Shown in pieces: positions 1,790 to 18,184 of a DNA stretch of 18,929 nucleotides (position 1 is the first letter of the stretch; every line of letters starts with the position of its first letter). Below the pieces are notes generated by a model. It searched no databases. It saw only the letters and a program-made list of their open reading frames with translations, and was not told the DNA's origin. Position numbers and translations under genes: made by a program. Source of the DNA: a virus; UHGV virus genome UHGV-1353644, one strand, 5' to 3'.

Positions 1790-1821
1790 TATAATATCAT
1801 CAGACGCTTGATTTGTAAACT
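1790..1821 (-). promoter_or_regulatory. T4 early-type promoter upstream of asiA
   Basis: On minus strand: A/T-rich upstream, GTTTAC (complement of 1815-1820), 18 nt, TATTAT (complement of 1791-1796); ATG of asiA about 30 nt downstream. Confidence 0.55.
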
Positions 1822-1920
1822 GGTCTGTGGTATTTTCTTCGAAAATTTTTTCTACGAATTCCTTGAACGACTTACGTTCCTGAGCTATATTATGCTCGAT
1901 TACTTTTTCAAGATTATGAC

Positions 1921-2199
1921 TCATTCGAAATAATCTTCAATTTCGTAATCATGGACATAAATCATTATAGTTTTTAATACATCATCAATACTTTTTCCTG
2001 GAGCTGGAATTACGTAGAAATATCCTACTTTTGAGTGGTCTTTATAAGTTCCAAACAAGAAATCATTATTCTCAAGATGTAATTCTTCAACTAATTCATT
2101 AACAATTGAATGGTATAGGTTTGGTAGAAACTTATATAGCTTTTCTAGAATATCAATTTTGATTGTATATTGAACCACAGATTGAGAATCAATAATCAT
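1921..2199 (-). CDS. arn: Arn-like anti-restriction protein (92 aa, acidic), inhibitor of McrBC-type restriction in T4
   Basis: 92-aa acidic protein directly upstream of asiA; length, position and recalled sequence agree with T4 Arn. SD GGGGAAGG precedes the ATG. Confidence 0.7.
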   Translation of the reverse strand: MIIDSQSVVQYTIKIDILEKLYKFLPNLYHSIVNELVEELHLENNDFLFGTYKDHSKVGYFYVIPAPGKSIDDVLKTIMIYVHDYEIEDYFE

Positions 2200-2282
2200 A
2201 GACCTTCCCCTTATGTTTCTGTTTGCGATTAGATTCTTTAAACGCTTTCTTCTTATCCTTATGAACAGAAGCTTTATTAAAA

Positions 2283-2501
2283 TTATGCTTTGCGACTAAG
2301 TTGTTCATAATGCTGAATTACCTCTCTTAAACATTTGCATGTGAATGAAAACTTTTTAGCTACACCACATTCAAATATATGTTCTCTTAAATCACGTGTA
2401 TCGGTATATCCCATCTCAACGATAAAGTGCCGTATTAGATTTTTATCTTTATCATTGAGAGAATTAAAATAGTCAGATTTTGAATTAATTTCCCTGGCCA
2501 A
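2283..2501 (-). CDS. Hypothetical protein (72 aa, arn.1 position); probable TTG start
   Basis: ORF track; no in-frame ATG near the 5' end; TTG at 2501 is preceded by SD AAGGTGA. Cys-containing (CGVAKKFSFTCKC). Confidence 0.45.
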   Translation of the reverse strand: MAREINSKSDYFNSLNDKDKNLIRHFIVEMGYTDTRDLREHIFECGVAKKFSFTCKCLREVIQHYEQLSRKA

Positions 2502-2781
2502 GTTGAATCACCTTCAGTTGACGTTTTAGTTCTTTTATAATTTCTTCGTTCATCGCAATATAAAGATCGCGTAAAGCAGGTTTTAGCATTCCATTTACTG
2601 GAGAACTAAATGGACATACATAATCTTTTCCTACGAGCTTTTTGGTGAATTCCATATTACAGAACTTAAATGCCGGTTCATTGGTATAAATTCCCCAATT
2701 AGTTGACATCATTTTATTGGCATATTCCAATGCCTGGATTTGATTCATAATTCCATCAATTTGAAACTTTTTAATATTCAT
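2485..2781 (-). CDS. Hypothetical protein (98 aa)
   Basis: ORF track; ATG at 2781 overlaps the stop of the upstream ORF (ATGA), consistent with translational coupling. Confidence 0.6.
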   Translation of the reverse strand: MNIKKFQIDGIMNQIQALEYANKMMSTNWGIYTNEPAFKFCNMEFTKKLVGKDYVCPFSSPVNGMLKPALRDLYIAMNEEIIKELKRQLKVIQLGQGN

Positions 2782-3239
2782 CAGTAAAGGTCCTCAGAGT
2801 AAAGTTCTTTTTCACTACCACCACGTTCAATACGTACTTGTCCAGCGTAAGTTGCAATAATCATTGCTTCTTCACGTGTCCAATAATTACTATATTGGTC
2901 AATAAACCCTTGGTCATCATCACAAACTTGTTGAGTAACTAATTGAGGTTTAACTATATCTAAAACTTCTGCCATATCTTTAGAATAATGACGAGCACCT
3001 GGAATAATAAGAGTTCGTCCATCTTTTAATTTAAAACGGTTGGCTGCACAGACAATTCGTCGTTGATACTTTTGGTTTTCATCCCAATATGCAGGCTGCC
3101 AACAGATTTCAGGAACTTCATCTAAAACATCCTGTTCTGTATATTCGCCATAAGAAGATAATTTAGCAGCTAAACTTTCAGGAGTCTCACGAGACAAAGC
3201 TTTATCTAACAGAGCTAAACGTTCTTTGAATGTTTTCAT
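2781..3239 (-). CDS. Hypothetical protein (152 aa)
   Basis: ORF track; ATGA overlap with the upstream ORF at 3236-3239; unbroken frame in a compact operon. Confidence 0.65.
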
Positions 3240-3565
3240 TTAAACCATCCTTTAATACGTTGCCATAAAGTTTTCTGTTGAGCTTTGTTGACACCAATTG
3301 AGCGAATAACTGGTTGAGATTCCTGGAATTCTTTATAATCAGCAAGGTAAATTTCGTAAGCTGTATCCGTAAAGGAACTTATCGCTGCCATAAAATTATT
3401 GCGAATACCTACTGGAGCATCTTTGCTTTCACGAATAATCATGTATTTACCAGTCTTAATCTTTACGATAGTTCCAAGATAAGCTCCATGGTACCAGATG
3501 TCCCACCCCTCTTGAGTGGGTTCTGCACAACGACGAAGTTCATTAACAATTTCTAACTTGTTCAT
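3236..3565 (-). CDS. Hypothetical protein (109 aa)
   Basis: ORF track; SD GAGGAA upstream of the ATG at 3565. Confidence 0.65.
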
Positions 3566-3575
3566 TATTTATTCC

Positions 3576-4211
3576 TCACAGTTCAGATGCTACAGTGATT
3601 ACTGCTTCAATGTTTTCTGCCGAGCGTTTAATGTCAAGATACACATTACCGTTTTTAGCGATTTTACACGACATTCCGATATCAGTAAATTTCTGAATAT
3701 GATGTTCCATCATTTTGTATCCAAAAATTCGCATATTTCCGTTATTATTAATTTCAAAATTACGAATTCCGTGAGTGCGTTTTTCTAAAATAGCAAGATA
3801 ATTACTACGATAAGTTTCAACCTTTTTAAGAACAAATCCGTTTTCATCCAAAAGTTTTAACATGAAGTCTTTATCTTCTTCCATATCAGAAGTAATCTCA
3901 CGAGCTTTACGAGTTGCTCGTTTTTTCAGCAGTTCCGGGGCATTTTCCTGTGCGTATAAAGTTGCTGCATTTGAAATAATATCCTGAGCTTCACCAGTAA
4001 TGATTAATCCATCACCAGATTTCTCTACCAAGCCTTTTTTAATCAATACCCCAATATTACTATTAACTACTGCATTACCTAAATCTGGATGCACCTCACG
4101 AACTTCTGCAGCTGTAATGAAATCTTTCTTAGCAATAGTAATTAAAATCGCAGCAGTTTTTTCATTCAGAACATCGTTAGAAGCTTTGATGATGTAAGTT
4201 ACTTTAGACAT
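3576..4211 (-). CDS. motA: MotA, activator of middle-mode transcription (211 aa)
   Basis: Translation MSKVTYIIKASNDVLNEKTAAILITIAKKDFITAAEVREVHPDLGNAVVNSNIGVLIKKGLVEKSGDG... matches recalled T4 MotA; same length; SD GGAG upstream. Confidence 0.95.
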   Translation of the reverse strand: MSKVTYIIKASNDVLNEKTAAILITIAKKDFITAAEVREVHPDLGNAVVNSNIGVLIKKGLVEKSGDGLIITGEAQDIISNAATLYAQENAPELLKKRATRKAREITSDMEEDKDFMLKLLDENGFVLKKVETYRSNYLAILEKRTHGIRNFEINNNGNMRIFGYKMMEHHIQKFTDIGMSCKIAKNGNVYLDIKRSAENIEAVITVASEL

Positions 4212-4251
4212 TTTCTAATCTCCGTAATTCTGTATCAGTAGTTGATAGTTG

Positions 4252-4283
4252 TATAGTACCACAGTATGCTTTGGTTGTAAACC
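4252..4283 (-). promoter_or_regulatory. T4 early-type promoter upstream of motA
   Basis: Minus strand: AAAAATTTTTT upstream, GTTTAC (complement of 4277-4282), 18 nt ending CTGTGG, TACTAT (complement of 4253-4258), then the conserved leader ACAACTATCAACTACTGATAC. Confidence 0.6.
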
Positions 4284-4302
4284 GTTTTGTGAAAAAATTT
4301 TT

Positions 4303-4333
4303 GAAATAAAAAAGGGAGAGCCGAGGCTCTCCC
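4303..4333 (-). terminator. Rho-independent terminator after the 49-aa ORF
   Basis: Minus-strand RNA: 8-bp GC-rich stem GGGAGAGC / GCUCUCCC with a 4-nt loop, immediately followed by UUUUUUAUUU. Confidence 0.7.
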
Positions 4334-4338
4334 TAAAA

Positions 4339-4488
4339 TTATTGCATGACTGTGATAACTGTCATGATAACACGTTGAATTCCGAACGCAAGAAGACCTC
4401 CTGCTACGGCAGGAACAACACCTAAACCCGTCAGTAAAATGCCACCAGATACTAATGCAGCGCTTGTAATACCAATGAATGGACTCAT
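4339..4488 (-). CDS. Small hydrophobic membrane protein (49 aa), motA.1 position
   Basis: My own translation: MSPFIGITSAALVSGGILLTGLGVVPAVAGGLLAFGIQRVIMTVITVMQ. Its ATG overlaps the TGA of gp52 (ATGA); terminator follows. Below the ORF-track length cutoff. Confidence 0.55.
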   Translation of the reverse strand: MSPFIGITSAALVSGGILLTGLGVVPAVAGGLLAFGIQRVIMTVITVMQ

Positions 4489-5813
4489 TTGATTTCCTCT
4501 AAATCTTTGGTGTATTCGGTAACTACATCAGTAGTTTTCCAATATTCGTTCTCTTCTTTTTTAGCTTTAGCTTCTTCAGCAAGTTTCTTCGCTTCATCGG
4601 AAGTCATATGAAAAATATTCATTCCGACTAGTTTATCAGCATAAGAAGAATACATATCAATTTTAGAAAGTTCTTCGGTCAGTTCTTTACGAGTTTTACC
4701 CTGTACAACAATTTCACCTGAAATTACTTTCTTAATGAAATGTGCCTTGGCAAAGGCTAAACGAAATGCTGACTCAGTTTCTTTAATTTTGTTATCAATT
4801 CGTTTTTGGACATAAGTTTTACGAACTTCAACAAAGTCTTTAATTAAATCGACTACGTTATCGTAAACTTGAAGCTTTCCTTTCTCATTAATAACAGTAA
4901 TATTCTGAGAACGACGTTCAATCAATCCGAAGTCTTTCATAATTTTTGCGTGACGTTCTTCTTCATTATCGCTCAAAGAATATTCTTTACGGAATTTAAC
5001 TTTGAAGCCAAAGCCGTGCTCACCACAAGCATCATCCCATGTAATGAAGCCTTTATCTTCAAGCGGGTCTAAAATTTTACTCACATAAGTTTCACGATCA
5101 TACTTATACGGAATCTCAGTGATATGCATTTGAGTTCGTGAAGTAAACTTATATGTTCCGCGAATTTCATATTGCCCATCAATTTCAACGACTTCACCAC
5201 GAAATTCTGGGAATTCTACCTTCGGTTTAGTTACTTTCTTTCCTTGAAGAGCTTGCAATACAGCTTTCTTGACAGAAGAAACACTATGAGGAAGAATGTA
5301 AGTTGCATAACCAGTTGCAATACCGGAAACACCATTAAGAAGAACGGTAGGAATAATAGGCAAATAGAAAGCAGGCGGAATGTGTTCTTTATCTTGATGT
5401 ACCGGAGCATATTCAGTATCTTTATATACACTATAGAAATTTTTACTTACACGAGCAAAAATATAACGACTTGCCGCTGCTTTTTGAACGGTACGAGAAC
5501 CAAAGTTTCCTTGACCATCTAACAGAGGAAAGTTATTATTCCATGTGTTAGCCATCAAAGCACCCGCATCTTGTGCAGAGTTTTCGCCATGATGATATCC
5601 AAGGTCAGCTACACCACCTGCAATAGAAGCGAGTTTATGAAACTTATCTTTATTTCCTCGTGCCAAATCAAGAGCTCGAGCAATAACAAATCGTTGAACT
5701 GGCTTAAATCCATCAATCATATTTGGGATAGCACGATTTTCAACCGTGTACATAGCATAAGCCAATGCTTCATTATCAATGATACTTTTTAAATCGCGAT
5801 TATTCAGTTGCAT
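4485..5813 (-). CDS. 52: DNA topoisomerase II medium subunit gp52 (GyrA-like, 442 aa)
   Basis: Translation has the GyrA/ParC-type catalytic region (AASRYIFARVSKNFY, with the RYxxxR active-site Tyr context) and an N-terminus like recalled T4 gp52. Confidence 0.95.
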   Translation of the reverse strand: MQLNNRDLKSIIDNEALAYAMYTVENRAIPNMIDGFKPVQRFVIARALDLARGNKDKFHKLASIAGGVADLGYHHGENSAQDAGALMANTWNNNFPLLDGQGNFGSRTVQKAAASRYIFARVSKNFYSVYKDTEYAPVHQDKEHIPPAFYLPIIPTVLLNGVSGIATGYATYILPHSVSSVKKAVLQALQGKKVTKPKVEFPEFRGEVVEIDGQYEIRGTYKFTSRTQMHITEIPYKYDRETYVSKILDPLEDKGFITWDDACGEHGFGFKVKFRKEYSLSDNEEERHAKIMKDFGLIERRSQNITVINEKGKLQVYDNVVDLIKDFVEVRKTYVQKRIDNKIKETESAFRLAFAKAHFIKKVISGEIVVQGKTRKELTEELSKIDMYSSYADKLVGMNIFHMTSDEAKKLAEEAKAKKEENEYWKTTDVVTEYTKDLEEIK

Positions 5814-5817
5814 AAAT

Positions 5818-5958
5818 TTACCATACTAGTGAATGTAGTGCCATAATAACATCAGAAATGAAAAGCACGACTTGAATTAATCCGAACATTATTCCATAAT
5901 ATAACGCTATCAATAAAATAGCAAGGGCTAATGAATAGCCCAAGATTTTCTTAATCAT
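5818..5958 (-). CDS. Small membrane protein (46 aa), 52.1 position
   Basis: My own translation: MIKKILGYSLALAILLIALYYGIMFGLIQVVLFISDVIMALHSLVW. ATG sits 5 nt downstream of the stop of the preceding ORF. Confidence 0.5.
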   Translation of the reverse strand: MIKKILGYSLALAILLIALYYGIMFGLIQVVLFISDVIMALHSLVW

Positions 5959-6109
5959 TAGTAGATAACAACACAAATGTTAAATATGCACACATACCCT
6001 GAGCTAAAGCTTGTGAAAACACGCTACTGGCATCGGTACAGATAGTTAAAACGCATACTACTATCCAACAAATAAATGAAATAACTCCTAATAATTTTGC
6101 GATATTCAT
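5951..6109 (-). CDS. Small membrane protein (52 aa), paralogue of the adjacent 51-aa ORF; one of the two is probably the ac-type gene
   Basis: ATG at 6109 preceded by SD GAGGAG (the track extends to an upstream TTG). Protein MNIAKLLGVISFICWIVVCVLTICTDASSVFSQALAQGMCAYLTFVLLSTND shares a CW...SVF.QA.AQG pattern with the neighbour. Confidence 0.55.
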   Translation of the reverse strand: MNIAKLLGVISFICWIVVCVLTICTDASSVFSQALAQGMCAYLTFVLLSTND

Positions 6110-6119
6110 AATATTCTCC

Positions 6120-6275
6120 TCAACTGTTTTTAAAACCAATGCACGCGAATAATGATAAAACTGCTAATACACCCTGGGCTGATGCTTGTAAAAATACTGA
6201 AGTTTCTCCAGTTATTACTGTTCCAGCGAATAAAAAGCACCAACAGAAAAAAGTTATATCATAAATAAATTTCAT
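6120..6275 (-). CDS. Small membrane protein (51 aa), ac-like position
   Basis: My own translation: MKFIYDITFFCWCFLFAGTVITGETSVFLQASAQGVLAVLSLFACIGFKNS. SD GAGGAAAAT directly after the stp stop. Confidence 0.55.
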   Translation of the reverse strand: MKFIYDITFFCWCFLFAGTVITGETSVFLQASAQGVLAVLSLFACIGFKNS

Positions 6276-6282
6276 ATTTTCC

Positions 6283-6363
6283 TCACAGACGTCCGAAGAC
6301 GCCTTTGGTTTTAAGATTTTTACGATAGAACTGCATCACGTGTTCGTTGTGGAAATTACTCAT
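6283..6363 (-). CDS. stp: Stp peptide (26 aa), the T4 peptide that activates the host PrrC anticodon nuclease
   Basis: My own translation [26 protein letters not shown] matches recalled T4 Stp at nearly every position. Its ATG overlaps the TAA of ndd (TAATG). Absent from the ORF track because of length. Confidence 0.8.
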
Positions 6364-6818
6364 TAATATGCCTGCAAAACAAATTTAAAGTTATCAGCCA
6401 ACATACGATTCATTTCTTCAAGTGTTTGATACTCAGAATGATGATTACGAGTAAACGCCAAAGCTAACTGACCTTTTCCAAATCCTGTCGTCAGAGGTTT
6501 CATCTTAGAAGCAGGAAGATAAAATACTGCGTATGGAACATTGTTATTTGCAATAGTACGCGCAAGCTGAGACCGACGCTGACGAATATGACTTAGAACT
6601 GCACTAAATCCTTGCTTAGAACGCTGATTACCTACATAAAATCGTGCAGATACACACGGACTATCAAATGGACCACCAAATTTGCTCACTAAAAAGTAAA
6701 ATCCAGGGTTAGACAAAATGTCTTTATGCGGAGTTCCAAAAACCCATTCACCGCCCTTGATTGTACCAATAACAGTAGCGCCTGCATTATTCAAATCAGT
6801 AACAGTCATATATTTCAT
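6363..6818 (-). CDS. ndd: Nucleoid disruption protein Ndd (151 aa)
   Basis: Translation [25 protein letters not shown]...[25 protein letters not shown]... matches recalled T4 Ndd; same length and position relative to stp. Confidence 0.9.
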
Positions 6819-6877
6819 GTTAATTTCCTCTAATTATTTTCTACTCCAAGGCCGCATGAATACACACGGCCATTAAA

Positions 6878-7093
6878 TTAATCGTCGCAGTCGACGCTCA
6901 ATTCCCAAAACTCTTCTACAGTATAAGTTTCAGTATCATTTTCAATACAGAAACGTTCATTACTGTTATTTGCTAAAGTAGCATTAACTGTCGGTTTCTC
7001 GCTAGTGCTCTTAAGAGGTGAAATACGAATTAACTGATCACCATTATCTAAACAGAAAATTTCACCAACTTTTACATCTTTAAAGATTTTCAT
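6878..7093 (-). CDS. Hypothetical protein (71 aa)
   Basis: ORF track; SD GAGGTG upstream of the ATG at 7093. Confidence 0.6.
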   Translation of the reverse strand: MKIFKDVKVGEIFCLDNGDQLIRISPLKSTSEKPTVNATLANNSNERFCIENDTETYTVEEFWELSVDCDD

Positions 7094-7101
7094 AATTCAC
7101 C

Positions 7102-7212
7102 TCAAGGAGTATAAAATCCAAATGCAGTTGTTGACCATCCCATCCAATACGGGAAATTTGCGCCAATGTAAAACATAAGAATATAAAACCAACCGCTCAG
7201 CAAATTCATCAT
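7102..7212 (-). CDS. Tiny aromatic/hydrophobic ORF (36 aa)
   Basis: My own translation: MMNLLSGWFYILMFYIGANFPYWMGWSTTAFGFYTP. ATG overlaps the stop of the upstream ORF (ATGA). Confidence 0.4.
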   Translation of the reverse strand: MMNLLSGWFYILMFYIGANFPYWMGWSTTAFGFYTP

Positions 7213-7406
7213 TTTACACCATTCCAAATTGTTTCAATCACGGATTTTAAACCATTCTGATGAATATCCATTCCGACTACAGCCATCAAATAGATTCCAA
7301 CTACAACTGAACCTAATGCAAAAATCAGCATGAAAATGAATAAAGCCGGAAAAATATTATCGAAAAACCATTCCATAAATGTAAAAGCACTGCGTTTACG
7401 TTTCAT
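7209..7406 (-). CDS. Small membrane protein (65 aa)
   Basis: Internal ATG at 7406 preceded by SD TGAGGAAAAT (the track extends to 7427). Basic N-terminus MKRKRSAF followed by a hydrophobic stretch. Confidence 0.55.
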   Translation of the reverse strand: MKRKRSAFTFMEWFFDNIFPALFIFMLIFALGSVVVGIYLMAVVGMDIHQNGLKSVIETIWNGVK

Positions 7407-7413
7407 ATTTTCC

Positions 7414-7527
7414 TCACATAAATCCAAAGTAAACGTTTAATACATCAATCATTAAAACGATTGGGAATATACTCAAAACAACTAAAATTATAATTATATT
7501 CCATATAGCTTTAACAATCTTTTTCAT
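7414..7527 (-). CDS. Small membrane protein (37 aa)
   Basis: ATG at 7527 preceded by SD GGAGGA and lying just downstream of an early promoter; protein MKKIVKAIWNIIIILVVLSIFPIVLMIDVLNVYFGFM. The track's upstream extension would cover the promoter. Confidence 0.45.
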   Translation of the reverse strand: MKKIVKAIWNIIIILVVLSIFPIVLMIDVLNVYFGFM

Positions 7528-7554
7528 TTTCTGTTCCTCCGTAGTTGATAGGGT

Positions 7555-7586
7555 AATAGTACCACAGAGGAACAGTCTTGTAAACA
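7555..7586 (-). promoter_or_regulatory. T4 early-type promoter inside the small-ORF cluster
   Basis: Minus strand: GTTTAC (complement of 7580-7585), 18 nt ending CTGTGG, TACTAT (complement of 7556-7561), then leader TATCAACTACGGAGG. Confidence 0.55.
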
Positions 7587-7591
7587 ACTTT

Positions 7592-7690
7592 TTAAAAATA
7601 TTCGTAATAAATGTGAATACCAATCACTACTGCCGAAACTTGCGCAACCCACCATGCACAAGCAATAAGTACAGAATTCAAAATTTTCAT
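7592..7690 (-). CDS. Tiny hydrophobic ORF (32 aa)
   Basis: My own translation: MKILNSVLIACAWWVAQVSAVVIGIHIYYEYF. SD GAGGT upstream; ATG overlaps the stop of the upstream ORF (ATGA). Confidence 0.4.
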   Translation of the reverse strand: MKILNSVLIACAWWVAQVSAVVIGIHIYYEYF

Positions 7691-7773
7691 AATAACCTCA
7701 TCACAAAAGTAAATGTTAAACAAATTACTGGAATACTAATTAACCAAACAAAACACCACCATAACGAACTCAT
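7687..7773 (-). CDS. Tiny hydrophobic ORF (28 aa)
   Basis: My own translation: MSSLWWCFVWLISIPVICLTFTFVMRLL. ATG overlaps the TGA of the 87-aa ORF. Could be a chance frame in A/T-rich DNA. Confidence 0.35.
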   Translation of the reverse strand: MSSLWWCFVWLISIPVICLTFTFVMRLL

Positions 7774-8033
7774 AGTTCAATCTCAGCGATTTTCATTTCA
7801 TTACTATTAATAGCCGCTTTAAGACTATCCGAAAGAATTACATTCCAGTGGTCATTCATATGACCATTAACTAAGCGTGTAATTTCTTCAGGAGTTGAAA
7901 AATAAGGCTGATCAGACTCCCAGTGCGATAATCCTAAGCGGGTATAAATCATACCTTCATCATCGCTAGAATATTCAACTGACACAAACTCATCAGTTGT
8001 TTTATGTTTAGCGTAATAAAATTTAAATTTCAT
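7770..8033 (-). CDS. Hypothetical protein (87 aa from ATG at 8033; the track uses TTG at 8042)
   Basis: ORF track. The first ATG lies 5 nt downstream of the stop of the upstream ORF (8039-8041). Confidence 0.55.
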   Translation of the reverse strand: MKFKFYYAKHKTTDEFVSVEYSSDDEGMIYTRLGLSHWESDQPYFSTPEEITRLVNGHMNDHWNVILSDSLKAAINSNEMKIAEIEL

Positions 8034-8038
8034 TTTAT

Positions 8039-8245
8039 TCAATAATCCGCTAAAAGATCGACGATTGCATCACGAAGACATTTATTCGCAATACGTTTAA
8101 GAGCAATTTCAGTTTCAGGCGCATTTCGAATAATCATTGAATTCAATTCAGCTTCGGCAAACTGAAGTTCTTTGACTAATTCAGCTTTATATTTTCCTTG
8201 ACCTTTCTTAGCTTTTGCTCGTTTTAATTCAGCTGTAGTAAACAT
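8039..8245 (-). CDS. Hypothetical protein (68 aa), Lys/Ala/Glu-rich
   Basis: Internal ATG at 8245 preceded by SD GGAGAA, about 35 nt downstream of an early promoter. The track's longer form (to 8344) would run through the promoter. Confidence 0.55.
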   Translation of the reverse strand: MFTTAELKRAKAKKGQGKYKAELVKELQFAEAELNSMIIRNAPETEIALKRIANKCLRDAIVDLLADY

Positions 8246-8278
8246 TTTGTTCTCCAAATCCGTATCAGTTGATAGTTG

Positions 8279-8310: not shown

Positions 8311-8325
8311 ATTTTGTGAAATTTT

Positions 8326-10349: not shown

Positions 10350-12527
10350 TTAGGCCGCAAGGGCCTTCATAGTTTTAGCGATTTGGGAAACTTCATCATC
10401 ACTTAAAGAGTTGCGATATCCGATGAAGTCGGAAACAATACGGAATTTCTTGGTAAACTCAGCAACCATTTTATCACTGTTTTTTGAAGCATTATATGAT
10501 AATTTATCAAAAAGATTAGTTACTGTCCAGATGTCATGACCGATGGTATCTTTTCCACCGTTAAAATATACACCCTGTAATGAACTAACCATATTAGCGA
10601 GTCGTGTATATTTTTCAGAAACTTCATCTGTACTGAAGTACTTCATCATAAAATCTAACTCAGGATACTTGATGATTTTATCAATATATCGTTTAGCTGA
10701 ACTTGAATAACCTACGTACTCATCATAATCTACATCATCAAAAGCATCTACATATAAATCACGCACAGTTTCAAAAATACATTGGCACTGACCAAGTTCT
10801 TTTACCTTTTTCTGTAAAAGAGGACGAATAACATAAAATTCATTAATGCCAATAAGATTAGCCATACGAATCAAAATATTCATAGATGGATTACAAAGAG
10901 ATGTAGTACCATCCATAGAGAAAATATCAGAACGATGCATATACGCTACATAACCAGTAATTTCATCTGCTTCTGACGTAAGCGTAAATAGTTCTTCTTT
11001 TTCCCAACGCCCATCTTTAATTTCAAACTTAAATGCTGTAGCAGCTTTAGGACGAGGAGCTTTACTTTTAACTGCCTTCGGAATATAGCTTTTAACTAAA
11101 GCTTCAATTTCTGACAAATAATGAATGTTAACTTCATCACTTTCAAACATCGCCATAATATCAGGAAGTAAATCAATTTGTGATTCTACTTCTGGATTAA
11201 TAAACAGAAGACGCTCATTATGATGAATATTTAAAGTGTTATTAAATTCACTATCATCTAACGCATGTGCTAATCCACGGACAATATTAACACGATTTTT
11301 AATATCATCAATAACGATATTAATTTTTGTTGTATTAATACCGAACAGACGATAGCTTGATGCAACGGCTGAAGTTTCATGGCTTTGCTTAATGCGTTTC
11401 AGTCGAGGGTCAAGATTTACTTCATACACAACCCCTGCATTACATAACTTACTATCAGGTTCAAACATGCTCTGCATCTTCTTATATGACAGATTTTTAG
11501 TCGTGAATTTGACTGAATTACTAATCATATAATCTCGAGCAGAATATCCCATCTTCATCAATTCACGATATGTGTGACGAGGAGATGTAGATTCTTTAAA
11601 TCGTTTTACATCTTCATTAAATGCTTGCTCACTGAGTTCTTTAACTCGTTCAATAATATTTTTACGAGTACGATCATCCAGTGAAAGAGCCTCGCGAGAT
11701 GGAGCAATATCAAGTGAACCCATTGGAAACTTAATGTAATTCACTTCATTACGAATGCTTAGCCAGTTACGCTCTCTAATAACACCATCAATAGGATAAA
11801 CAATACCGCCATAGATAGCATACAATCCACCACGATCAGGCCAATATCTTTCTGGATTTACGCCATAGTAGTCATCAAAATCCGGAAAATAATCAATTTC
11901 ACGGTCAAGACCATTAATGATAGCCAAATCTTTGAACGGCCGCATGATATAAGAAACTTCATAAGCAAAGTTTCTAAAGTCTTTTTCTTCAACTGGAACT
12001 ACGATTTCAATACCAGTTTTATCATCTGGACCCATTTCTTTTACGAATGTAGGTTTAATTTGTGGACCATCGCCATCCATATAAGCTACATAACCACGAA
12101 TTTCGCCTTTATGATACGAAGTAATACTAAACGTATCAGTATAACTAAATGGAGATTTAGAACCTAAACCAAATCCGCCAATGAAATCGTTGGATTCGGC
12201 TTTAGATGAACTGAAGTATGAATTATACAGACCAGGAGAATTATCATCACCCTGAATATCAAAATCACTCATACCTGGACCAAAATCTCGGCAAACAAAT
12301 CGCGGATCTAATCGTCCAGGAACTTGTATGATAAATTTTTCAGGATTTCCATTGAGTGCATGAGCATCAATCATGTTAGTAATTAATTCACGGACTACTG
12401 CGCGAATCTTGTTTGTATACAAATCAGACGACAAAATTTTAAATACTTTAGGAGATGCTGTGATGCTAAATGCTTTTGATTTAGAACCATTACCAAGAAT
12501 TGTTTCTTTTTCAGTGGTGATAATCAT
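10350..12527 (-). CDS. rIIA: rIIA protein (725 aa) with N-terminal GHKL-type ATPase fold
   Basis: Length 725 aa as in T4; translation carries GHKL motifs ([11 protein letters not shown]-box, RDFGPGM G1, [10 protein letters not shown]2) and matches recalled T4 rIIA. Confidence 0.95.
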
Positions 12528-12537
12528 AATTTCCTCA

Positions 12538-12741
12538 TTAATTCATATTGCGCTTAATAACTTCAGCAACTTCTAGTAATTCATCTTTAGTTGCGGTGTC
12601 GGATTGAATTTTATCTCTAATATCTTTAAAGCGGTTTTTAAACTCTTCGGCTTCTCCCATATCGAAAAAGCGTTGAATGATTCTGTATTCTCGATGAACT
12701 GCTTTATCAAAAAGTTCTAAATTTACTCTGTATGATTTCAT
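12538..12741 (-). CDS. Hypothetical protein (67 aa), rIIA.1 position
   Basis: ORF track; SD GAGGA upstream of the ATG at 12741; 10 nt upstream of the rIIA start. Confidence 0.65.
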
Positions 12742-12765
12742 TCCAATATCCTCATTTGCCCAATT

Positions 12766-12797
12766 AATTATACCACATCCTTGTGGTAAAGTAAACT
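12766..12797 (-). promoter_or_regulatory. T4 early-type promoter for rIIA.1-rIIA-rIIB, abutting the gp39 stop codon
   Basis: Minus strand: GTTTAC (complement of 12791-12796, overlapping the gp39 TAG by 1 nt), 18 nt ending ATGTGG, TATAAT (complement of 12767-12772). Confidence 0.6.
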
Positions 12798-14613
12798 ACT
12801 GGCTCATCCATTCTTTGCGAAGGTCAGCATTATCTCCCATGAGCATTTCAAAAAGCTCTTTCCAATTCTCAGGAAGTTTAACAACATCATATACTGGATT
12901 TTGAATCATCTCACGATATTCAGATTTTTCCAAAGAGCCAAGTCCTTTAATATAACGGATGCTATGTTTAGGTAGAGCATCTTTGGCACTCTCATATTCA
13001 GCGACTGTATAAAACCATTCTTGTTTTTTACCGACCTGAGCGATGATTACAGGAGTTTTGACAAAGCGAATTCGCCCCTGTTCAAACAGTTCTGGCCAAT
13101 TACTAAAAAATCCAAGCAGAGAAGGATAAATGCTTCCTAGACCATCATGGTCAGCATCAGTCATAATAGCAATATTACGATAATTCAAGTTTTCAGCTTT
13201 TTCACCAAGAACTAGACCAGTGATTGCGCAAATATCAAATAGTTCTTTGTTTTTAAGCATATCGGCATATGACATACCCCAGCTATTAAGAACTTTACCA
13301 CGCAATGGATAACCACCATGAAGTTCTTTATCGCGAACATCAATAAGATATCCGATAGCAGAATCACCCTCAGTTAAGAACAATGTAGTGTCAGCATCTT
13401 TACCACAAAGATTCGCTTTAATATGTTTATGAACCTTAGCTTTAGAAGCCTTTTTAGCTGCTTTAGTTTCTGCTGCTTTTTCTGCCGCCAATTTACGAGC
13501 TAATGCTGCTTCAATAATTGGCATCAAAATTGCTTCATTATTTAGAATAGCGCGTGAAATCTTTTTAGCATCAAGTTGAATATGACTACGAATTTCACCA
13601 AATGGAGAAGTCAAACGCTCTTTAGTTTGAGAATCAAATCGCATGTTTTTCATATCACGAACAAACATAACGATAGTCAAACATTCTTTAACACGTGCTT
13701 TAGTTACATCAATTTTGAACTTACGTTTGATTTGTGGAATAAGGTCTTCACAAATATCATCCATAACACAATCAATGTGATGGCCACCATTCTTAGTGTG
13801 AATGTTATTCACGTAAGTTAATTGACGAAAACCATCCGGTGAACGACCAACCGCAATAGAACAATTTTCTTGCTCTTGAACAATAGCATGCTCATCATAT
13901 TGGCGTGCATATTTCTTAAAATTACCCTGAACCTTTTTACCATTAAAGGTAAATTGAATATCAGGATAAACTACAGCAAGTGTCTGGAGACGATCTAGTG
14001 TAATGTCAAGATAAACTTGGGACAGCTCATTAGTTTCAAATGACATAAAATCAGGAATGAAAGTAACACGAGTTCCTTTCCATTTTCCAGGAATATCTTC
14101 CCATGATTTATTTTCCATGCCATTTGAACAACGAACTACAATATTATTTTGACCATCACCAGTTTCACCGACAAACATCACAGAAAAAATGTTTGTCAAA
14201 CTAGAACCAACACCGTTCATACCACCAGTGACGCGTTCTTTATCATCACCGAAGTTACCACCAGCTTTTGGAATAGTCCAAGCAGCTACCGGACCAGGAA
14301 TTTCTTCGCCGGTAGGTGTTTTAACCATCGCTTGTGGAATACCACGACCGTTATCTTCAACTGTTACTTGATTGTTTTTAATAGTAACATTAATTTTATT
14401 CGCGAATTTAAACTTAGTACGAATACCTTCATCTACTGAGTTATCGATAATTTCATCAATAAGCTTAACAAGACCAGGTACATACTGAACACTTTCCCAT
14501 TTACCAAACAGAAAGCGCTCATGCATTTCATTAGCGGAAGAGCCAATGTACATGCCGCTACGCTTTTTGATATGTTCAATATCGCTCAGAATTTTAATTT
14601 CATTCTTAATCAT
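12796..14613 (-). CDS. 39: DNA topoisomerase II large subunit gp39, unsplit GyrB-like form (605 aa from ATG)
   Basis: GHKL ATPase motif VEDNGRGIP, Toprim motifs LTEGDSA and DADHDG, and PLRGK. One continuous 605/606-aa frame, as in T2-type phages where genes 39 and 60 are fused. ATG at 14613 has SD GAGGA at good spacing (the track starts at GTG 14616). Confidence 0.95.
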   Translation of the reverse strand: MIKNEIKILSDIEHIKKRSGMYIGSSANEMHERFLFGKWESVQYVPGLVKLIDEIIDNSVDEGIRTKFKFANKINVTIKNNQVTVEDNGRGIPQAMVKTPTGEEIPGPVAAWTIPKAGGNFGDDKERVTGGMNGVGSSLTNIFSVMFVGETGDGQNNIVVRCSNGMENKSWEDIPGKWKGTRVTFIPDFMSFETNELSQVYLDITLDRLQTLAVVYPDIQFTFNGKKVQGNFKKYARQYDEHAIVQEQENCSIAVGRSPDGFRQLTYVNNIHTKNGGHHIDCVMDDICEDLIPQIKRKFKIDVTKARVKECLTIVMFVRDMKNMRFDSQTKERLTSPFGEIRSHIQLDAKKISRAILNNEAILMPIIEAALARKLAAEKAAETKAAKKASKAKVHKHIKANLCGKDADTTLFLTEGDSAIGYLIDVRDKELHGGYPLRGKVLNSWGMSYADMLKNKELFDICAITGLVLGEKAENLNYRNIAIMTDADHDGLGSIYPSLLGFFSNWPELFEQGRIRFVKTPVIIAQVGKKQEWFYTVAEYESAKDALPKHSIRYIKGLGSLEKSEYREMIQNPVYDVVKLPENWKELFEMLMGDNADLRKEWMSQ

Positions 14614-14640
14614 CACTTATCCTCGTTTGGTTTCGGGAAT

Positions 14641-14666
14641 ATTATACTCCGGTAATCATAAAGCTA
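14641..14666 (-). promoter_or_regulatory. Candidate MotA-dependent middle promoter upstream of gp39
   Basis: Minus strand: TTTAGCTTTA (MotA-box-like, consensus TGCTTtA), 12 nt, TATAAT (complement of 14641-14646), about 25 nt upstream of the gp39 ATG. Confidence 0.5.
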
Positions 14667-14682
14667 AAGGCCCGAAGGCCTT
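14667..14682 (-). other. UUCG-tetraloop RNA hairpin immediately after the lipoprotein stop codon
   Basis: Minus-strand RNA: AAGGCC-UUCG-GGCCUU. The following sequence is only partly U-rich, so a stabiliser or weak terminator. Confidence 0.5.
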
Positions 14683-14943
14683 TTATTTAAAACGAATAGT
14701 CGAATCCTTAAAGAACAGCCCAGAACATACTGTTCCTTCTACTTTCTGCCCGGTAGGTCCAATAGCACGAAATCCAGTATGTTGGAAATCATTTTCAGAG
14801 CAACCAAACCAATTGTATCCAGTGATTTCAATATTAGTAAACCCACTTGAAGATAAAACTTTGGTTGCATTATCAGCATCAGTACATCCTACTAAAGATA
14901 CTGCTAATACTAATGCCGCGATAGAACGATTAACATATTTCAT
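14683..14943 (-). CDS. Predicted small lipoprotein (86 aa from ATG)
   Basis: Translation MKYVNRSIAALVLAVSLVGCTDADN... has a signal peptide with lipobox LVGC and two further Cys in the mature part. ATG at 14943 (the track extends to TTG 14955). Confidence 0.6.
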   Translation of the reverse strand: MKYVNRSIAALVLAVSLVGCTDADNATKVLSSSGFTNIEITGYNWFGCSENDFQHTGFRAIGPTGQKVEGTVCSGLFFKDSTIRFK

Positions 14944-14947
14944 AATT

Positions 14948-15322
14948 TCACTCAAATTTAATGGCTTGAAGGAGACTAATAATTCTTAAACGGCTTCTTT
15001 CATCTTTAACTGTAAAAGAAAGAGGGTCGCCAGATTTCATAGTGATAGTGCATTCAAAATCAAAATTTTCGGGAACTTCTTCGAAGAAGTCAAATTCTTC
15101 ATCATAAATTAGAACTTCACTCCGCAGACTGTGAAGAATTTTTCCAGCATTTCTGCTAGTTGCTGTACTAATCATCGTAACATTGCGACCTTTCATATCT
15201 TCAACGATAAATTCGCTTGTAGATATTACAGCATTAATAGAACCATTCCTGTGAATAGCAGACATTAGATATTTCTTTTCTTCGCCTTCGCGAATGCGAT
15301 ATTTCTTACCGATTTTAAACAT
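14948..15322 (-). CDS. Hypothetical protein (124 aa)
   Basis: ORF track; its ATG sits 2 nt after the stop of the zinc-ribbon ORF. Confidence 0.6.
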   Translation of the reverse strand: MFKIGKKYRIREGEEKKYLMSAIHRNGSINAVISTSEFIVEDMKGRNVTMISTATSRNAGKILHSLRSEVLIYDEEFDFFEEVPENFDFECTITMKSGDPLSFTVKDERSRLRIISLLQAIKFE

Positions 15323-15324
15323 AA

Positions 15325-15501
15325 TTATCCTTTAAGTAAGTCGTAAAATCCACCATTCACATGCTTAGGAGCAGAAGCCCGACGAGTAGACAAACGATGA
15401 CATTTAGGGCAAACATCATTTTCTCGTTCAGAAATCTTTTTAATTTTTTCATATTCATGCCCACAATCTTTAGATTGGCATTTATAATCATACATCGGCA
15501 T
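15325..15501 (-). CDS. FmdB-like zinc-ribbon protein (58 aa)
   Basis: My own translation: MPMYDYKCQSKDCGHEYEKIKKISERENDVCPKCHRLSTRRASAPKHVNGGFYDLLKG. Two CxxC pairs and an MP.Y.Y.C start typical of the FmdB zinc-ribbon family. SD AAGGAA upstream. Below the track cutoff. Confidence 0.6.
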   Translation of the reverse strand: MPMYDYKCQSKDCGHEYEKIKKISERENDVCPKCHRLSTRRASAPKHVNGGFYDLLKG

Positions 15502-15503
15502 AA

Positions 15504-15920
15504 TTATTCCTTAAAATGAGCTTTCAACATCTGATACAAAGACCATGCCTGTTCATTATTTTCAATAGTGACTTTCATTAAAGGAAAATCAGAAGATGTA
15601 TCAGTTACTGGTACAGGTTCTTCCTGCTCTTCGGCAGCCTGATATGGATTTCCCACTTCATCGAAGAACCCAGCTTCATTCGTGGAGAGCCAGATAAAGT
15701 TTTCATCAAGGATATCACCGCCTGTTGCGTATCCAACTGTGCCAGTAGATGTCACAATTTTAGTAGGACGCCCAAGATGGTCAACATCTAAAATTTTAAA
15801 AGGATGCATACCTAAACGCCGCGCATAGATTCCGTTATCAGTATGGTCTTTAATAAAATTTTCTTGAGCTTGTTTATTTTTAAATTGATACCATTTATTA
15901 ACTTCAAATTTAATAGCCAT
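15504..15920 (-). CDS. Hypothetical protein (138 aa from ATG), possibly goF-like by position
   Basis: ATG at 15920 preceded by SD GGAAGGA (the track uses an upstream TTG). Acidic central region. Size and position are close to recalled T4 goF; identity not verified. Confidence 0.55.
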
Positions 15921-16135
15921 TAATAAATTTCCTTCCAATAAGTTGTGCCATCTTCAGTAATTTCACGAAATACGCCATAAATTGGTTGTTTATCACCGAC
16001 TTTTTCATACACATAAACCGAAGTCAAGTGAGTAAACTTAACAGTGTGTTCCTTTTGAACTACTACCAAATCTGGGTCAAATAATACATCTTCAAATTCA
16101 TCATTAGTGCAATTCTGAACAATTTTACGTTTCAT
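15920..16135 (-). CDS. cef: Cef-like small protein (71 aa)
   Basis: Length 71 aa and position (between the goF-position gene and the motB side) agree with recalled T4 cef. SD GAGGAAA upstream. Sequence identity not verified. Confidence 0.45.
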
Positions 16136-16148
16136 TACAATTTCCTCA

Positions 16149-16418
16149 TTAATTGAACAGTGGAGTGATGCGTTTCAGAAGAGTAGCAGCACCTTTGGCG
16201 AATTTTACATCATGAAAAACAGTTTCTTCTTCCATTACAACACGAGCTTTAATGTTTTCGCAATCCCAATTTTTACGAACAATCTTCAAAAGCTGTAGTA
16301 AATCTTTACATTCAGCAATATCGATAACACATCCGCGAGAATCTTCCATTATCGCACGATAACCATAAGCCATACCATAATCGTTGAAAGATTGTTCGAT
16401 GATGATTAAGTTTTCCAT
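16149..16418 (-). CDS. Hypothetical protein (89 aa from ATG)
   Basis: ATG at 16418 preceded by SD GGAGAA, about 45 nt downstream of a promoter (the track uses an upstream TTG). Confidence 0.6.
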   Translation of the reverse strand: MENLIIIEQSFNDYGMAYGYRAIMEDSRGCVIDIAECKDLLQLLKIVRKNWDCENIKARVVMEEETVFHDVKFAKGAATLLKRITPLFN

Positions 16419-16460
16419 TTTATTCTCCAAGTTGTTTTCTGTATCAGTAGTTGATATTGA

Positions 16461-16492
16461 TATAGTACCATAATCAACTACTGATGTATATA
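16461..16492 (-). promoter_or_regulatory. T4 early-type promoter with atypical -35 and a flanking 13-bp inverted repeat
   Basis: Minus strand: TGGTACTAT -10 (complement of 16462-16467) and the conserved leader ATCAATATCAACTACTGATAC, but no GTTTAC at the expected spacing. An alternative GTTTAA-16nt-TATATA lies just upstream. 13-bp inverted repeat at 16443-16455 and 16473-16485 brackets the -10. Confidence 0.45.
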
Positions 16493-16515
16493 GTTTTATG
16501 AAAAAATTTTAAACT

Positions 16516-17004
16516 TTATGCATAGAGAGCATTTCTATAGTGTTTAATCCAACTTTCAGGAATGACTTTGTATGTTCCTAAAAATACCACGTTGTACAAC
16601 TTAACACCATCTTCTACCCATTGATCGGTAATGTATCCACACATGGCACGAGTATAAACAGCCTTTCCATCATCTGGGATGAATTTAAATTCACAAGGAG
16701 CAATGAACTTGATAGATTGACCGAGTTTCCACTTAAAGTCTACACCTACATGCGAAGTATCAATCGTCTCAATTCCTTTAGCGGGAACAGCTTTCAAAAA
16801 CGCAGATTCAAGAAATTTTGCGCGAACATAACCAAACTGAGGTTTAGACTTTCCATCTTTAGGAATGATACGAACTTTTACTTCAGAATCTTCATCTTTA
16901 ACACCATGCTTAAGCTGAATGCTTACAATTTCGACCAATTTTCCTGCTGCTTTAGAACGGGATTTATCAGATACACGAGCAATTTCACCAATATTAATAA
17001 TCAT
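16516..17004 (-). CDS. motB: MotB-like protein (162 aa)
   Basis: Length 162 aa and position (between the cef-like gene and dexA) agree with recalled T4 motB. Shares a C-terminal domain with the next ORF. Confidence 0.55.
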   Translation of the reverse strand: MIINIGEIARVSDKSRSKAAGKLVEIVSIQLKHGVKDEDSEVKVRIIPKDGKSKPQFGYVRAKFLESAFLKAVPAKGIETIDTSHVGVDFKWKLGQSIKFIAPCEFKFIPDDGKAVYTRAMCGYITDQWVEDGVKLYNVVFLGTYKVIPESWIKHYRNALYA

Positions 17005-17042
17005 AGTTATCTCTCACTTGTTAAAAAGATTTTATACTCCGC

Positions 17043-17079
17043 GGGACCATTATACTCTGGTCCCAAGAGTTTGTAAACT
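17043..17079 (-). promoter_or_regulatory. T4 early-type promoter upstream of the motB-like gene, with a 7-bp-stem hairpin overlapping the -10
   Basis: Minus strand: GTTTAC (complement of 17073-17078), 18 nt, TATAAT (complement of 17049-17054). Inverted repeat GGGACCA / TGGTCCC (17043-17049 and 17058-17064) places the -10 in the loop. Confidence 0.55.
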
Positions 17080-17080
17080 A

Positions 17081-17623
17081 TTAATTCAAAATAGCTACTA
17101 CTGCACTACGAGGTACTACGCTAAAATCACCTGCATGAACAACGTTCAGAAGTTCAACACCATCTTCAATCCACTGGTCTGTTACCCAACCACAGACCGA
17201 AATAAATGGGGTCTTAATAGCTACTGCACGAGTTAGAAGGTCGGTAGGGCCTTGTTCTTCAACTTCTTGGAACAGGATGAACTCATCTTCATAAACCAGG
17301 TTTTTCTTTATTTTGTTATTATCTAACCGGCGACCGTGGATGACGTAAGATTTGTCAAACCACTGACTTTTGGTAAATTCTTCAACAATAAATTCGCCTT
17401 CGCCAAAAACATCAGTCAAAATTTTATGGCCGGAAATCAAGGCATTAGTTTTAATTTTAGGTTCAACCAGTTTGTAGGTTTTGCCGATTTCAATAACGGT
17501 AGTCATAGTAGGTTCCTTAATTTCCAGTGGTTTAACAGGGCATACATAAATGCTTACAACATCAAAATCAGTCAATTTAGCTGCTGGATTCGATGTGTAT
17601 TCAGGATTATAATTAAATTTCAT
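17081..17623 (-). CDS. Hypothetical protein (180 aa), paralogous to the motB-like ORF in its C-terminal domain
   Basis: C-terminus VCGWVTDQWIEDGVELLNVVHAGDFSVVPRS aligns with MCGYITDQWVEDGVKLYNVVFLGTYKVIPES of the 162-aa ORF. Confidence 0.65.
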   Translation of the reverse strand: MKFNYNPEYTSNPAAKLTDFDVVSIYVCPVKPLEIKEPTMTTVIEIGKTYKLVEPKIKTNALISGHKILTDVFGEGEFIVEEFTKSQWFDKSYVIHGRRLDNNKIKKNLVYEDEFILFQEVEEQGPTDLLTRAVAIKTPFISVCGWVTDQWIEDGVELLNVVHAGDFSVVPRSAVVAILN

Positions 17624-17625
17624 AA

Positions 17626-18126
17626 TTATCTCATTTCAATAAAATCTACAAGTTCAGCATGGGATTTACGGAACATTACTTGATGCCCACCAATGATAAC
17701 TTCATCTTCAGGAACTTCATATATAGCAAGATAAAATCCTTTAGAAGCTAATTCTTCACGCTCTTCTCGTGTGAACCATCTCATCATATCATATTCACTA
17801 GCGAAAGCAAAATGATAAAGAGCTATAAACCATCCTGGAATATGATATTCTACTCCAACATAATCTTTCTTGAACTTAGTATTAATTACTATATTAGCGT
17901 TTTTAACTAATAGTTTATCTTCATGTGGTAAAGGAATTCTTTTATTATTATCGCTATGATGCATAAAATTAGGTCTGTCATAACCTACGTGTAATAGCCA
18001 CTCTTCGCTCCATGAATCTATTATACTCCTGTACGGCGTTATTTGAACACAAAGATTTCGACGTATTGTTATAGCATCTTCATAATCAAGAATACTAAAC
18101 GATGATTCAACACGATAAATTTTCAT
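17626..18126 (-). CDS. Hypothetical protein (166 aa from ATG)
   Basis: ATG at 18126 preceded by SD GAGGATAA, downstream of an early promoter (the track extends to 18165, which would cover the promoter). Confidence 0.65.
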   Translation of the reverse strand: MKIYRVESSFSILDYEDAITIRRNLCVQITPYRSIIDSWSEEWLLHVGYDRPNFMHHSDNNKRIPLPHEDKLLVKNANIVINTKFKKDYVGVEYHIPGWFIALYHFAFASEYDMMRWFTREEREELASKGFYLAIYEVPEDEVIIGGHQVMFRKSHAELVDFIEMR

Positions 18127-18152
18127 TTTATTATCCTCAGTAGCTATGGTGT

Positions 18153-18184
18153 TATAATACCACAACTAACCGAGGAAGTAAACA
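18153..18184 (-). promoter_or_regulatory. T4 early-type promoter directly after the dexA stop
   Basis: Minus strand: AAAAAGTT, GTTTAC (complement of 18178-18183), 18 nt ending TTGTGG, TATTAT (complement of 18154-18159). Confidence 0.6.

Follow-up and report, generated by a model that had tools for sequence, protein, structure and literature searches.

Viral genome UHGV-1353644 was analysed here as a stretch of 18,929 nucleotides (the window), in which eight short sites on the minus strand share a GTTTAC-like hexamer, a gap of 18 nt and a TAYWAT hexamer, and several also share the leader that follows. This raises the question of what these cassettes are and why their leaders are more alike than sigma-70 recognition needs. 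An initial annotation had described them as a family of near-identical early-promoter cassettes that might also act as recombination substrates. Our analysis indicated, with a probability of about 90%, that the eight sites are sigma-70-dependent early promoters (Pe) of a T-even phage, and that their leader identity would come from three sources: a start-site box, RNA pairing and patchy exchange among cassettes. Host RNA polymerase uses T4 early promoters immediately after infection, and the literature on this activity concerns the T4 orthologs (PMC2988021, PMC6024815); these promoters were reportedly described by Liebig and Rueger in 1989, by Wilkens and Rueger in 1994 and by Miller et al. in 2003.

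Eight probable T4-type early promoters

The pattern GTTTAC-N17-19-TAYWAT matched eight times in the window, always on the minus strand, against 0.09 matches expected. We then scored the window with a position weight matrix (PWM) whose training set was restricted to two blocks of the T4 sites, the −35 and the extended −10, with the leader excluded. The PWM recovered exactly the eight sites of the initial annotation with scores of 19.4-32.0, and shuffled windows gave a mean of 0.8 hits above 12 and a best score of 20.5. An extra match of the regular expression at 14812-14842 (19-nt gap, within an open reading frame (ORF)) was dropped by the PWM. A generic TTGACA/TATAAT sigma-70 scan of the window gave no excess (68 found, 74.5 expected), so the signal is the T4-specific consensus. 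A repeat finder returned four of the sites as the top direct-repeat family, D1, of the window (4228-4301, 7531-7604, 8255-8328 and 16437-16510).

Many Tequatrovirus (T4-like) genomes match the window at about 95% identity, and by its sequence the window is a Tequatrovirus early region. Each of the eight sites has its positional ortholog among the T4 matches to the same pattern, of which there are 32 in that genome, 31 on the minus strand and one on the plus strand. The T4 GenBank record holds no promoter features except one note naming Pe133295, which corresponds to the T4 pattern match at 133331 with the +1 set 7 nt past the −10 hexamer; from this coordinate, the predicted +1 of the shared-leader cassettes is the A of CTATCAA.

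All eight sites lie 25-44 nt upstream of an ATG, with a Shine-Dalgarno sequence (SD) and the start codon at the 3′ end. The shared elements named in the initial annotation held to different degrees. TAYWAT is present in 8/8 sites and GTTTAC in 7/8, the exception being P6 (16462-16491) with ATATAC. The extended −10 is TGTGG in 5/8, TATGG in P6 and TGA in P1, and TGn is absent in P7. An A/T-rich upstream (UP) region is visible in P2, P3, P4, P6 and P8 and is weaker in P5 and P7. In the layout we propose, each site would consist of an A/T-rich UP region, a −35 hexamer GTTTAC(A/T), a 17-nt sigma-70 spacer usually ending in the extended −10 TGTGG, the −10 hexamer TAYWAT and a short 5′ untranslated region (UTR). 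This UTR would end in a GGAG-type SD, which may double as a RegB/S1 cleavage site.

Because consensus, strand, position before early genes and one-to-one T4 orthology agree, we read the sites as early promoters, and the match to the T4 early-promoter consensus claimed in the initial annotation was borne out on PWM, strand, gene position and orthology. T4 Pe have been described as UP/−35/TGn/−10 promoters with 'additional regions of consensus' (PMC2988021). With the T4 promoters of motA, asiA and motB and with P8.1, the sites of the window share the consensus (UP, GTTTAC, TGn, TAnnAT), strand, downstream genes and positions. They vary at the sequence level only: the P4 leader is 3 nt shorter, other ORFs stand behind P4, and an 89-aa ORF after P6 is intact. 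There is no difference in kind. In the main, the finding is a confirmation of textbook T4 biology from a new T-even genome.

Might the sites simply be chance matches in A/T-rich DNA? P6 (19.4) and P7 (19.9) score within the range of the single best shuffle, and the −35 hexamer of P6 is degenerate. Yet eight matches stand against 0.09 expected, on one strand only, and every site stands immediately before a start codon and is conserved in T4. The pattern count, the PWM and the T4 conservation together refuted this explanation, to which we assign next to no probability.

The early promoters can be placed precisely on the minus strand. P1 (1791..1820, score 25.1, T4 161211), GTTTAC-N18-TATTAT with TGn, is the predicted asiA early promoter (ATG at 1759) and lies inside an asiA.1-like ORF. 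P2 (4253..4282, score 32.0, T4 163673) is that of motA, and P3 (7556..7585, score 30.3, T4 166807) that of an ndd.4-like ORF (ATG at 7527). P4 (8280..8309, score 32.0, T4 167086) lies downstream of denB. P5 (12767..12796, score 28.0, T4 2458), which begins at the gene 39 stop codon, is the predicted rIIA.1 early promoter. P6 (16462..16491, score 19.4, T4 ~6620), downstream of motB and with ATATAC, TATGG and TACTAT, would drive the 89-aa ORF 16149-16418; T4 carries the same sequence at ~6.6 kb. P7 (17049..17078, score 19.9, T4 7215), without TGn, is the predicted motB early promoter; its initial coordinates, 17043-17079, had to be corrected to 17049-17078. P8 (18154..18183, score 30.0, T4 8218) lies downstream of dexA and would drive motB.2 (ATG at 18126). 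It probably corresponds to a promoter known from work on T4 as P8.1, by a name match that we infer (P8.1 is mentioned in PMC2988021).

The cassettes are similar in blocks

Since the gap is 18 nt in all eight sites, they could be aligned without gaps. Mean pairwise identity was 0.92 in the −35 hexamer, 0.75 in the extended −10, 0.41 in the UP region and 0.40 in the 22-nt leader. In the 13-nt spacer it was 0.29, which is the background level (0.27). Because the spacers are at background, the eight sites are a block-wise similar family and not near-identical copies. The eight promoter sites on the minus strand claimed in the initial annotation were therefore upheld by pattern, PWM and T4 orthology, and their near-identity was not.

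For the leader, the background had a mean of 0.27 and a 99.9th percentile of 0.59. Leader identity was 0.50-0.86 within P2, P3, P4 and P6; the leaders of P5, P7 and P8 are unrelated, and P1 shares the leader weakly. The statement that several sites share a leader is correct for the first four of these only. The motA (P2) and denB-downstream (P4) copies had been described as nearly identical over about 60 nt. We found 49/68 positions identical (72%) without gaps, or 80% over 105 nt with 14 gaps, and only 5/13 matches between their spacers. Their sole long identical block is the 25-nt CTGTGGTACTATACAACTATCAACT.

The shared leader and a start-site box

The leader of P2 (4212-4252, minus strand) has the full 41 nt, with the predicted +1 at 4246 (A of CTATCAA) and a GGAG SD. 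That of P4 (8246-8279, minus strand) is 3 nt shorter, and its SD, GGAGAACAAAA, fits the RegB/S1 consensus. P6 has the full shared leader despite its degenerate −35. In T4 the full leader aCAACTATCAACTACTGATAC occurs at sites 27080, 70696, 163673 and 167086, and a shortened or truncated form at 53943, 55384, 65413, 73572, 146875 and 166807. A BLAST search with the motA cassette found 8 other places in T4, with 76-85% identity over 72-121 nt; it matched 7-9 places per Tequatrovirus record and 1 place in other genera. A pattern scan of IMG/VR for the leader returned 8 loci only and was not used. The leader is a genome-wide, partly cross-genus trait of this promoter class, and is not peculiar to the window.

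The first part of the leader behaves differently from the second. YTATC at offset 4-8 past the −10 was found at 13/31 T4 sites versus 1/434 other TAYWAT sites (Fisher p = 4e-16), the YTATC core is present in 7/11 RB69 sites, and YTATCAA is enriched about 300-fold at T4 Pe. In Mosigvirus, Dhakavirus and Gelderlandvirus, the motA promoters have retained (C/T)TATCAA and lack the extension CTACTGATAC. To judge from these alignments, the first part of the leader is a class-wide start-site box and the second part is Tequatrovirus-specific. The claim that leader identity exceeds the needs of sigma-70 recognition was thus supported by both the alignment and the YTATC counts.

In our reading, the extra identity would have three sources. 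The first would be the class-wide box YTATCAA, with the +1 at the A, conserved in other Tevenvirinae genera; this box may tune start-site choice or promoter escape, as very strong promoters would need. The second would be RNA pairing between the promoter spacer and the leader, and the third patchy exchange among paralogous cassettes within Tequatrovirus.

Several other explanations of the leader had to be weighed. The RegB/S1 consensus is GG*AGRAYARAA (PMC3014915), and cassette 3′ ends fit it (GGAGAACAAAA in P4, GGAGAATAAAA in P6). RegB was nevertheless ruled out as an explanation of the 5′ leader CTATCAACTAC, because the sequence 5′ of GGAG is reported to be dispensable (PMC1702504).

The leader could also be the mere footprint of recent duplication or gene conversion among cassettes, with no function of its own beyond homology. 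Such a history would suit the BLAST-detectable dispersed family (76-85% over 72-121 nt), as well as T4 55384 and 146875, which are identical upstream and diverge at +9. The P4 leader of the window has the 3-nt deletion of T4 55384, unlike its T4 ortholog, and phage Lutter has ACAACTATC in P3 where other phages have TACCCTATC. However, the spacers of the same cassettes are at background identity, which simple duplication would not yield, and the YTATCAA core, with its ~300-fold enrichment at T4 Pe, is retained in other genera, at motA promoters with flanks diverged to ~75%. We therefore judge a pure footprint unlikely.

A further idea is that the leader holds an operator, the tandem heptad CAACTAT-CAACTAC, to which a phage or host protein would bind, perhaps one involved in early-promoter shut-off. 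The direct heptad repeat does sit at −4 to +10 of the predicted +1 (leader offsets 2-15) in a subset of promoters, and reviews describe the shut-off mechanism as not understood (PMC2988021, PMC3014915). Only its first half (YTATCAA) is conserved outside Tequatrovirus, though, the motif is missing from many early promoters, and no candidate protein that would bind it was identified. An operator appears very improbable.

Stem-loops in the cassettes

We next consider the RNA pairing. At four sites a strong hairpin is predicted, with spacer and leader as its arms and the −10 hexamer in its loop (z scores −5.3 to −6.3); among 200 shuffles of each, 0/200 folded as well. All four are on the minus strand. 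At P3 (7531..7575) the stem joins the spacer CUGUUCCUCUGUGGU to ACUACGGAGGAACAG, its 3′ arm lying over the SD (−23.2 kcal/mol, z −5.6), and the pairing is kept through G.U in the T4 and T2 variants. At P6 (16443..16485) the spacer AUCAGUAGUUGAU is perfectly paired over 13 bp with leader AUCAACUACUGAU (−20.1 kcal/mol, z −5.3). At P7 (17036..17070) CUCUUGGGACC and GGUCCCGCGGAG pair around the −10 (−23.7 kcal/mol in a 64-nt fold, z −6.0). At P8 (18134..18176) the two arms are the spacer UCCUCGGUU.AGUUGUGGU and ACCAUAGCUACUGAGGA, the 3′ arm lying over the motB.2 SD (−23.7 kcal/mol, z −6.3).

Other sites have weaker or adjacent structures. Between −35 and −10, P4 and P5 carry a 7-bp hairpin (ACCACA/UGUGGU) that is not significant by itself. 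An intrinsic terminator on the minus strand (4313..4334, AGGGAGAGCC-TCGG-CTCTCCCT followed by a T-run) lies directly upstream of the A/T-rich UP region of P2. P1 has no stem-loop (fold z +0.7). A stem-loop was thus found in or beside 7/8 sites. We also observed that the spacer motif (A/G)CCACAAGGA(C)TGTGGT recurs in P4 (8284-8303), P5 (12771-12790) and T4 Pe 50973, forming a 7-bp hairpin whose 3′ arm is the TGTGG extended −10.

The pairing is also seen in T4. There, spacers pair better with their own leader than with the leaders of other sites (−9.96 versus −6.8 kcal/mol, p < 5e-5), and the T4 controls (UP with leader, spacer with far-downstream sequence, UP with spacer) gave no effect. Twelve of the 31 T4 sites had a z below −2. 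Folding was more stable for the sense than for the antisense strand (p = 0.005), which indicates RNA structure using G.U pairs. Spacer-leader pairing was replicated at 11 RB69 sites (p = 0.0025). At the motB.2 promoter of Dhakavirus and Mosigvirus the anti-SD:SD stem is kept and the inner pairs differ. Spacer-leader/SD pairing, which has statistical support, was seen genome-wide in two genera and at a single locus in three. Within Tequatrovirus the orthologs of P8 agree at 96-100% and so carry no covariation signal.

Besides the low scores of P6 and P7 and the degenerate −35 of P6, four further points weigh against early promoters whose leaders are alike for the three reasons proposed. The activity of the eight sites in this phage is predicted from orthology and consensus, and the function of the start-site box is likewise a prediction. 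P2 and P4, which have the best leader identity, lack a significant spacer-leader hairpin, so pairing cannot explain the leader everywhere. Finally, RNAalifold on motB.2-promoter orthologs of three genera was weak, with double changes in 2/16 pairs and an unfavourable covariation term of +1.21; the test is weak because the stems are out of register, and cross-genus support for the hairpin therefore comes from the individual folds.

A possible promoter-choice switch

What might such stems do? The 5′ arm is the spacer, and the hairpin would form only in read-through transcripts from upstream. The stem-loops could then act as a promoter-choice switch and not as terminators: read-through RNA would hide the ribosome-binding and RegB site of the next gene, and RNA from the gene's own promoter, which lacks the 5′ arm, would be translated. 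The 3′ arm covers the SD in P3, P8 and 7 T4 sites, and for these the SD is predicted to be paired in the long transcript and free in the promoter-proximal one. The stems of the window have no U-run after them and none was called an intrinsic terminator. The better folding of the sense strand, with its sign of G.U use, and the anti-SD:SD stem that the Dhakavirus and Mosigvirus motB.2 promoters keep with different inner pairs are also in line with a switch, as is the report that RNA structure protects GGAG from RegB (PMC3014915). In T4, strong hairpins occurred in 0/5 sites with an upstream terminator versus 12/26 without, a trend only (p = 0.15).

There are, however, reasons for caution. In about half of the hairpins the pairing reaches +1..+10 and the SD stays free. 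The stems of P6 and P7 lie 5′ of the SD, and no sequestration is predicted for them. Terminator-like activity was shown for an RB49 stem-loop of the promoter-early stem-loop (PeSL) type (Arbiol 2010, PMC2839356). The switch is a prediction from folds, supported statistically and not functionally. We regard it as a tentative possibility for the cassettes. That many early-promoter spacers in T-even phages generally double as anti-SD, so that read-through RNA would be closed to ribosomes and RegB and own-promoter RNA open, seems more doubtful still.

A precedent exists. In T4 e, soc, 49 and I-TevI, a hairpin in read-through RNA sequesters the ribosome-binding site and a late promoter lies inside it, as experimentally shown (PMC3014915, section 29). 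The SD-covering arms and the lack of U-runs suggest the same logic here, with the promoter inside the hairpin, an own transcript without the 5′ arm, and the SD in the 3′ arm at P3, P8 and 7 T4 sites. In contrast to those genes, the window has an early promoter whose own spacer supplies the 5′ arm, and the function is a prediction. In the accessible literature, we did not find the SD-covering 3′ arm (P3, P8 and 7 T4 sites) or the missing U-run after the stems addressed; burial of the downstream SD by some stems is possibly a new nuance. If the switch operates, whether immediate-early genes such as motB.2 and ndd.4 are expressed would depend on the promoter from which their RNA came, and early-gene shut-off would have a post-transcriptional contribution beyond the published terminator/attenuator reading of PeSL stem-loops. 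Pairing that controls translation or RegB access in read-through RNA would bear on the unexplained rapid shut-off of early expression.

Indels and possible recombination at the cassettes

The initial annotation had further proposed that the cassettes serve as recombination substrates, which is already published for early promoters with stem-loops. Arbiol et al. (2010) described PeSLs in RB49 and phi1, with stem-loops between −35 and −10 or overlapping the −10, read them as terminators/attenuators, and mapped crossovers between the −10 and the ATG (PMC2839356). Comeau et al. (2014) extended PeSLs to PST/T4, with the consensus TTTACW-N17-TAYWAT, and also to nt-1/KVP40 (PMC4122927). The cassettes of the window resemble PeSLs in their composite of A/T-rich region, early promoter, stem-loop, SD and ATG, in the position of the stem-loops between −35 and −10 or overlapping the −10, and in lying in plastic regions beside small ORFs. 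PeSLs are proposed, and partly demonstrated, to be recombination substrates; the PST/T4 consensus is the pattern of the initial annotation, and an ndd.4/.5 exchange falls in this very region. Two differences emerged. Only 1/7 of the indels between T4 and the window abuts a cassette, and SD-ATG microhomology junctions also occur without a promoter. In addition, Tequatrovirus stems lack U-runs and several lie over the SD, which the published terminator/attenuator reading does not address.

Seven indels or replacements separate the window from T4. The only one that adjoins a cassette is at the 3′ edge of P4 (n = 7, too few for enrichment). It is a 441-bp insertion (7802-8243) that starts at the ATG behind P4 and holds two ORF modules, both on the minus strand, driven by P4 on our reading and absent from T4: ORF-A (8039-8245, phrog_4535) and ORF-B (7770-8033, phrog_2390). 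The two are joined at ATAAAATGAAA, one of the AAAATGAAA-type SD-ATG microhomologies, and occur together in 65 phage records. T2, RB7 and PP01 have ORF-A only, and T6, RB51 and wV7 have ORF-B only. What follows the same P4 promoter thus varies: T4 has a small ORF there, T2 and the window have ORF-A, and T6 and Lutter have ORF-B. In comparisons with T4, T2, T6 and Lutter, all junctions of the P4 module were AAAATGAAA-type SD-ATG microhomologies. The P4 leader itself differs between T4, the T2/T6/window group and Lutter, and the promoter upstream is the same.

The other events lie elsewhere. The indels at 6122-6271 and 14945-15320 have the same kind of SD-ATG repeat without a promoter, that at 8897-9100 is intragenic, and one event is the gene 60/mobA insertion of T4. 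The indel at 16210-16411 reflects the loss in T4 of an internal part of the ORF behind P6; the deletion lies at an AAAA microhomology, 8 nt beyond the ATG. It had been a candidate for a leader-mediated event and was rejected as such, since the nucleotide view showed the intra-ORF microhomology. The 89-aa ORF 16149-16418 (phrog_3720) that follows P6 is intact in the window, and its deleted remnant is unannotated in T4 (~6.50-6.56 kb).

Flanking gene content varied at P4, which is followed by different ORFs, and the other indels do not adjoin a cassette. Crossovers inside leaders are suggested by sequence variants: T4 55384 and 146875, identical from at least −35 to +9 before they diverge, the P4 leader variants, and Lutter P3. 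Cassette-mediated modular shuffling is compatible with these data; the recombining part here would be mainly the translation-initiation end, with the promoter not required, since the junctions lie at SD-ATG microhomologies, one at the 3′ edge of a cassette and several at promoter-less gene starts. The cassettes may travel with small early ORFs, the indel junctions being seen at their SD-ATG end. Strong early promoters would on this reading be modular units (UP, start-site box, stem-loop, SD/RegB site) that accompany small accessory ORFs in plastic regions.

SD-ATG regions (for example TGAGGAAAATATGAAA) at 6258-6298, 7401-7429, 12523-12543, 16134-16154 and 17606-17633 form direct-repeat families of their own, D4, D6 and D8. 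These families coincide with indel junctions versus T4.

Gene context and other features

The alignment of the window with T4 spans the conventional T4 genome origin. On one side, window 805-10338 lines up with T4 160.2-168.9 kb (t, asiA, arn, motA, 52, ac, stp, ndd, denB, rIIB), and on the other, window 10339-18929 with T4 0-9 kb (rIIA, rIIA.1, 39, goF, cef, motB, dexA). The T4 gene order t-asiA-motA-52-ndd-denB-rIIB-rIIA-39-goF-cef-motB-dexA is kept, with all these early genes on the minus strand. The left end (1-805, gp37/gp38 region) gave no nucleotide alignment with T4, and its tail-fibre tip or adhesin type appears to differ from that of T4. A search of the window against Rfam returned no family.

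Gene 39 (12796-14616) is a single uninterrupted 606-aa ORF; the T4 gene 60 split, the 50-nt bypass region, 60.1 and the mobA remnant (T4 insertion 2793-3911) are absent from the window. At 10468-10491 (minus strand), the position of T4 PrIIB2 (start 122, PMC2988021 Table 1), there is a MotA-box middle-promoter-like site, TGCTT-N13-TAAAAT, a single match that by itself is not above chance.

These results are of use for annotation: they give precise positions for the eight promoters and the four hairpins, and they allow two corrections, to the ndd.4 start and to the gene assigned to the 'dexA' promoter. At window 7525-7545, the ATG annotated as the T4 ndd.4 start (T4 166749-166764) is ACG in the window, T2 and T6. 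A conserved start with a GGAGG SD lies 15 nt downstream, and the T4 annotation therefore probably includes 5 codons too many.

A perfect 26-nt direct repeat, AAGGGCCGAAGCCCTTATTTAAATTG, occurs at 9163-9188 and 9386-9411, flanking the denB.1-like ORF 9177-9371. On the minus strand it reads as a terminator-like hairpin, GGGCTTCGGCCC, and the repeat pair could excise or duplicate this ORF.

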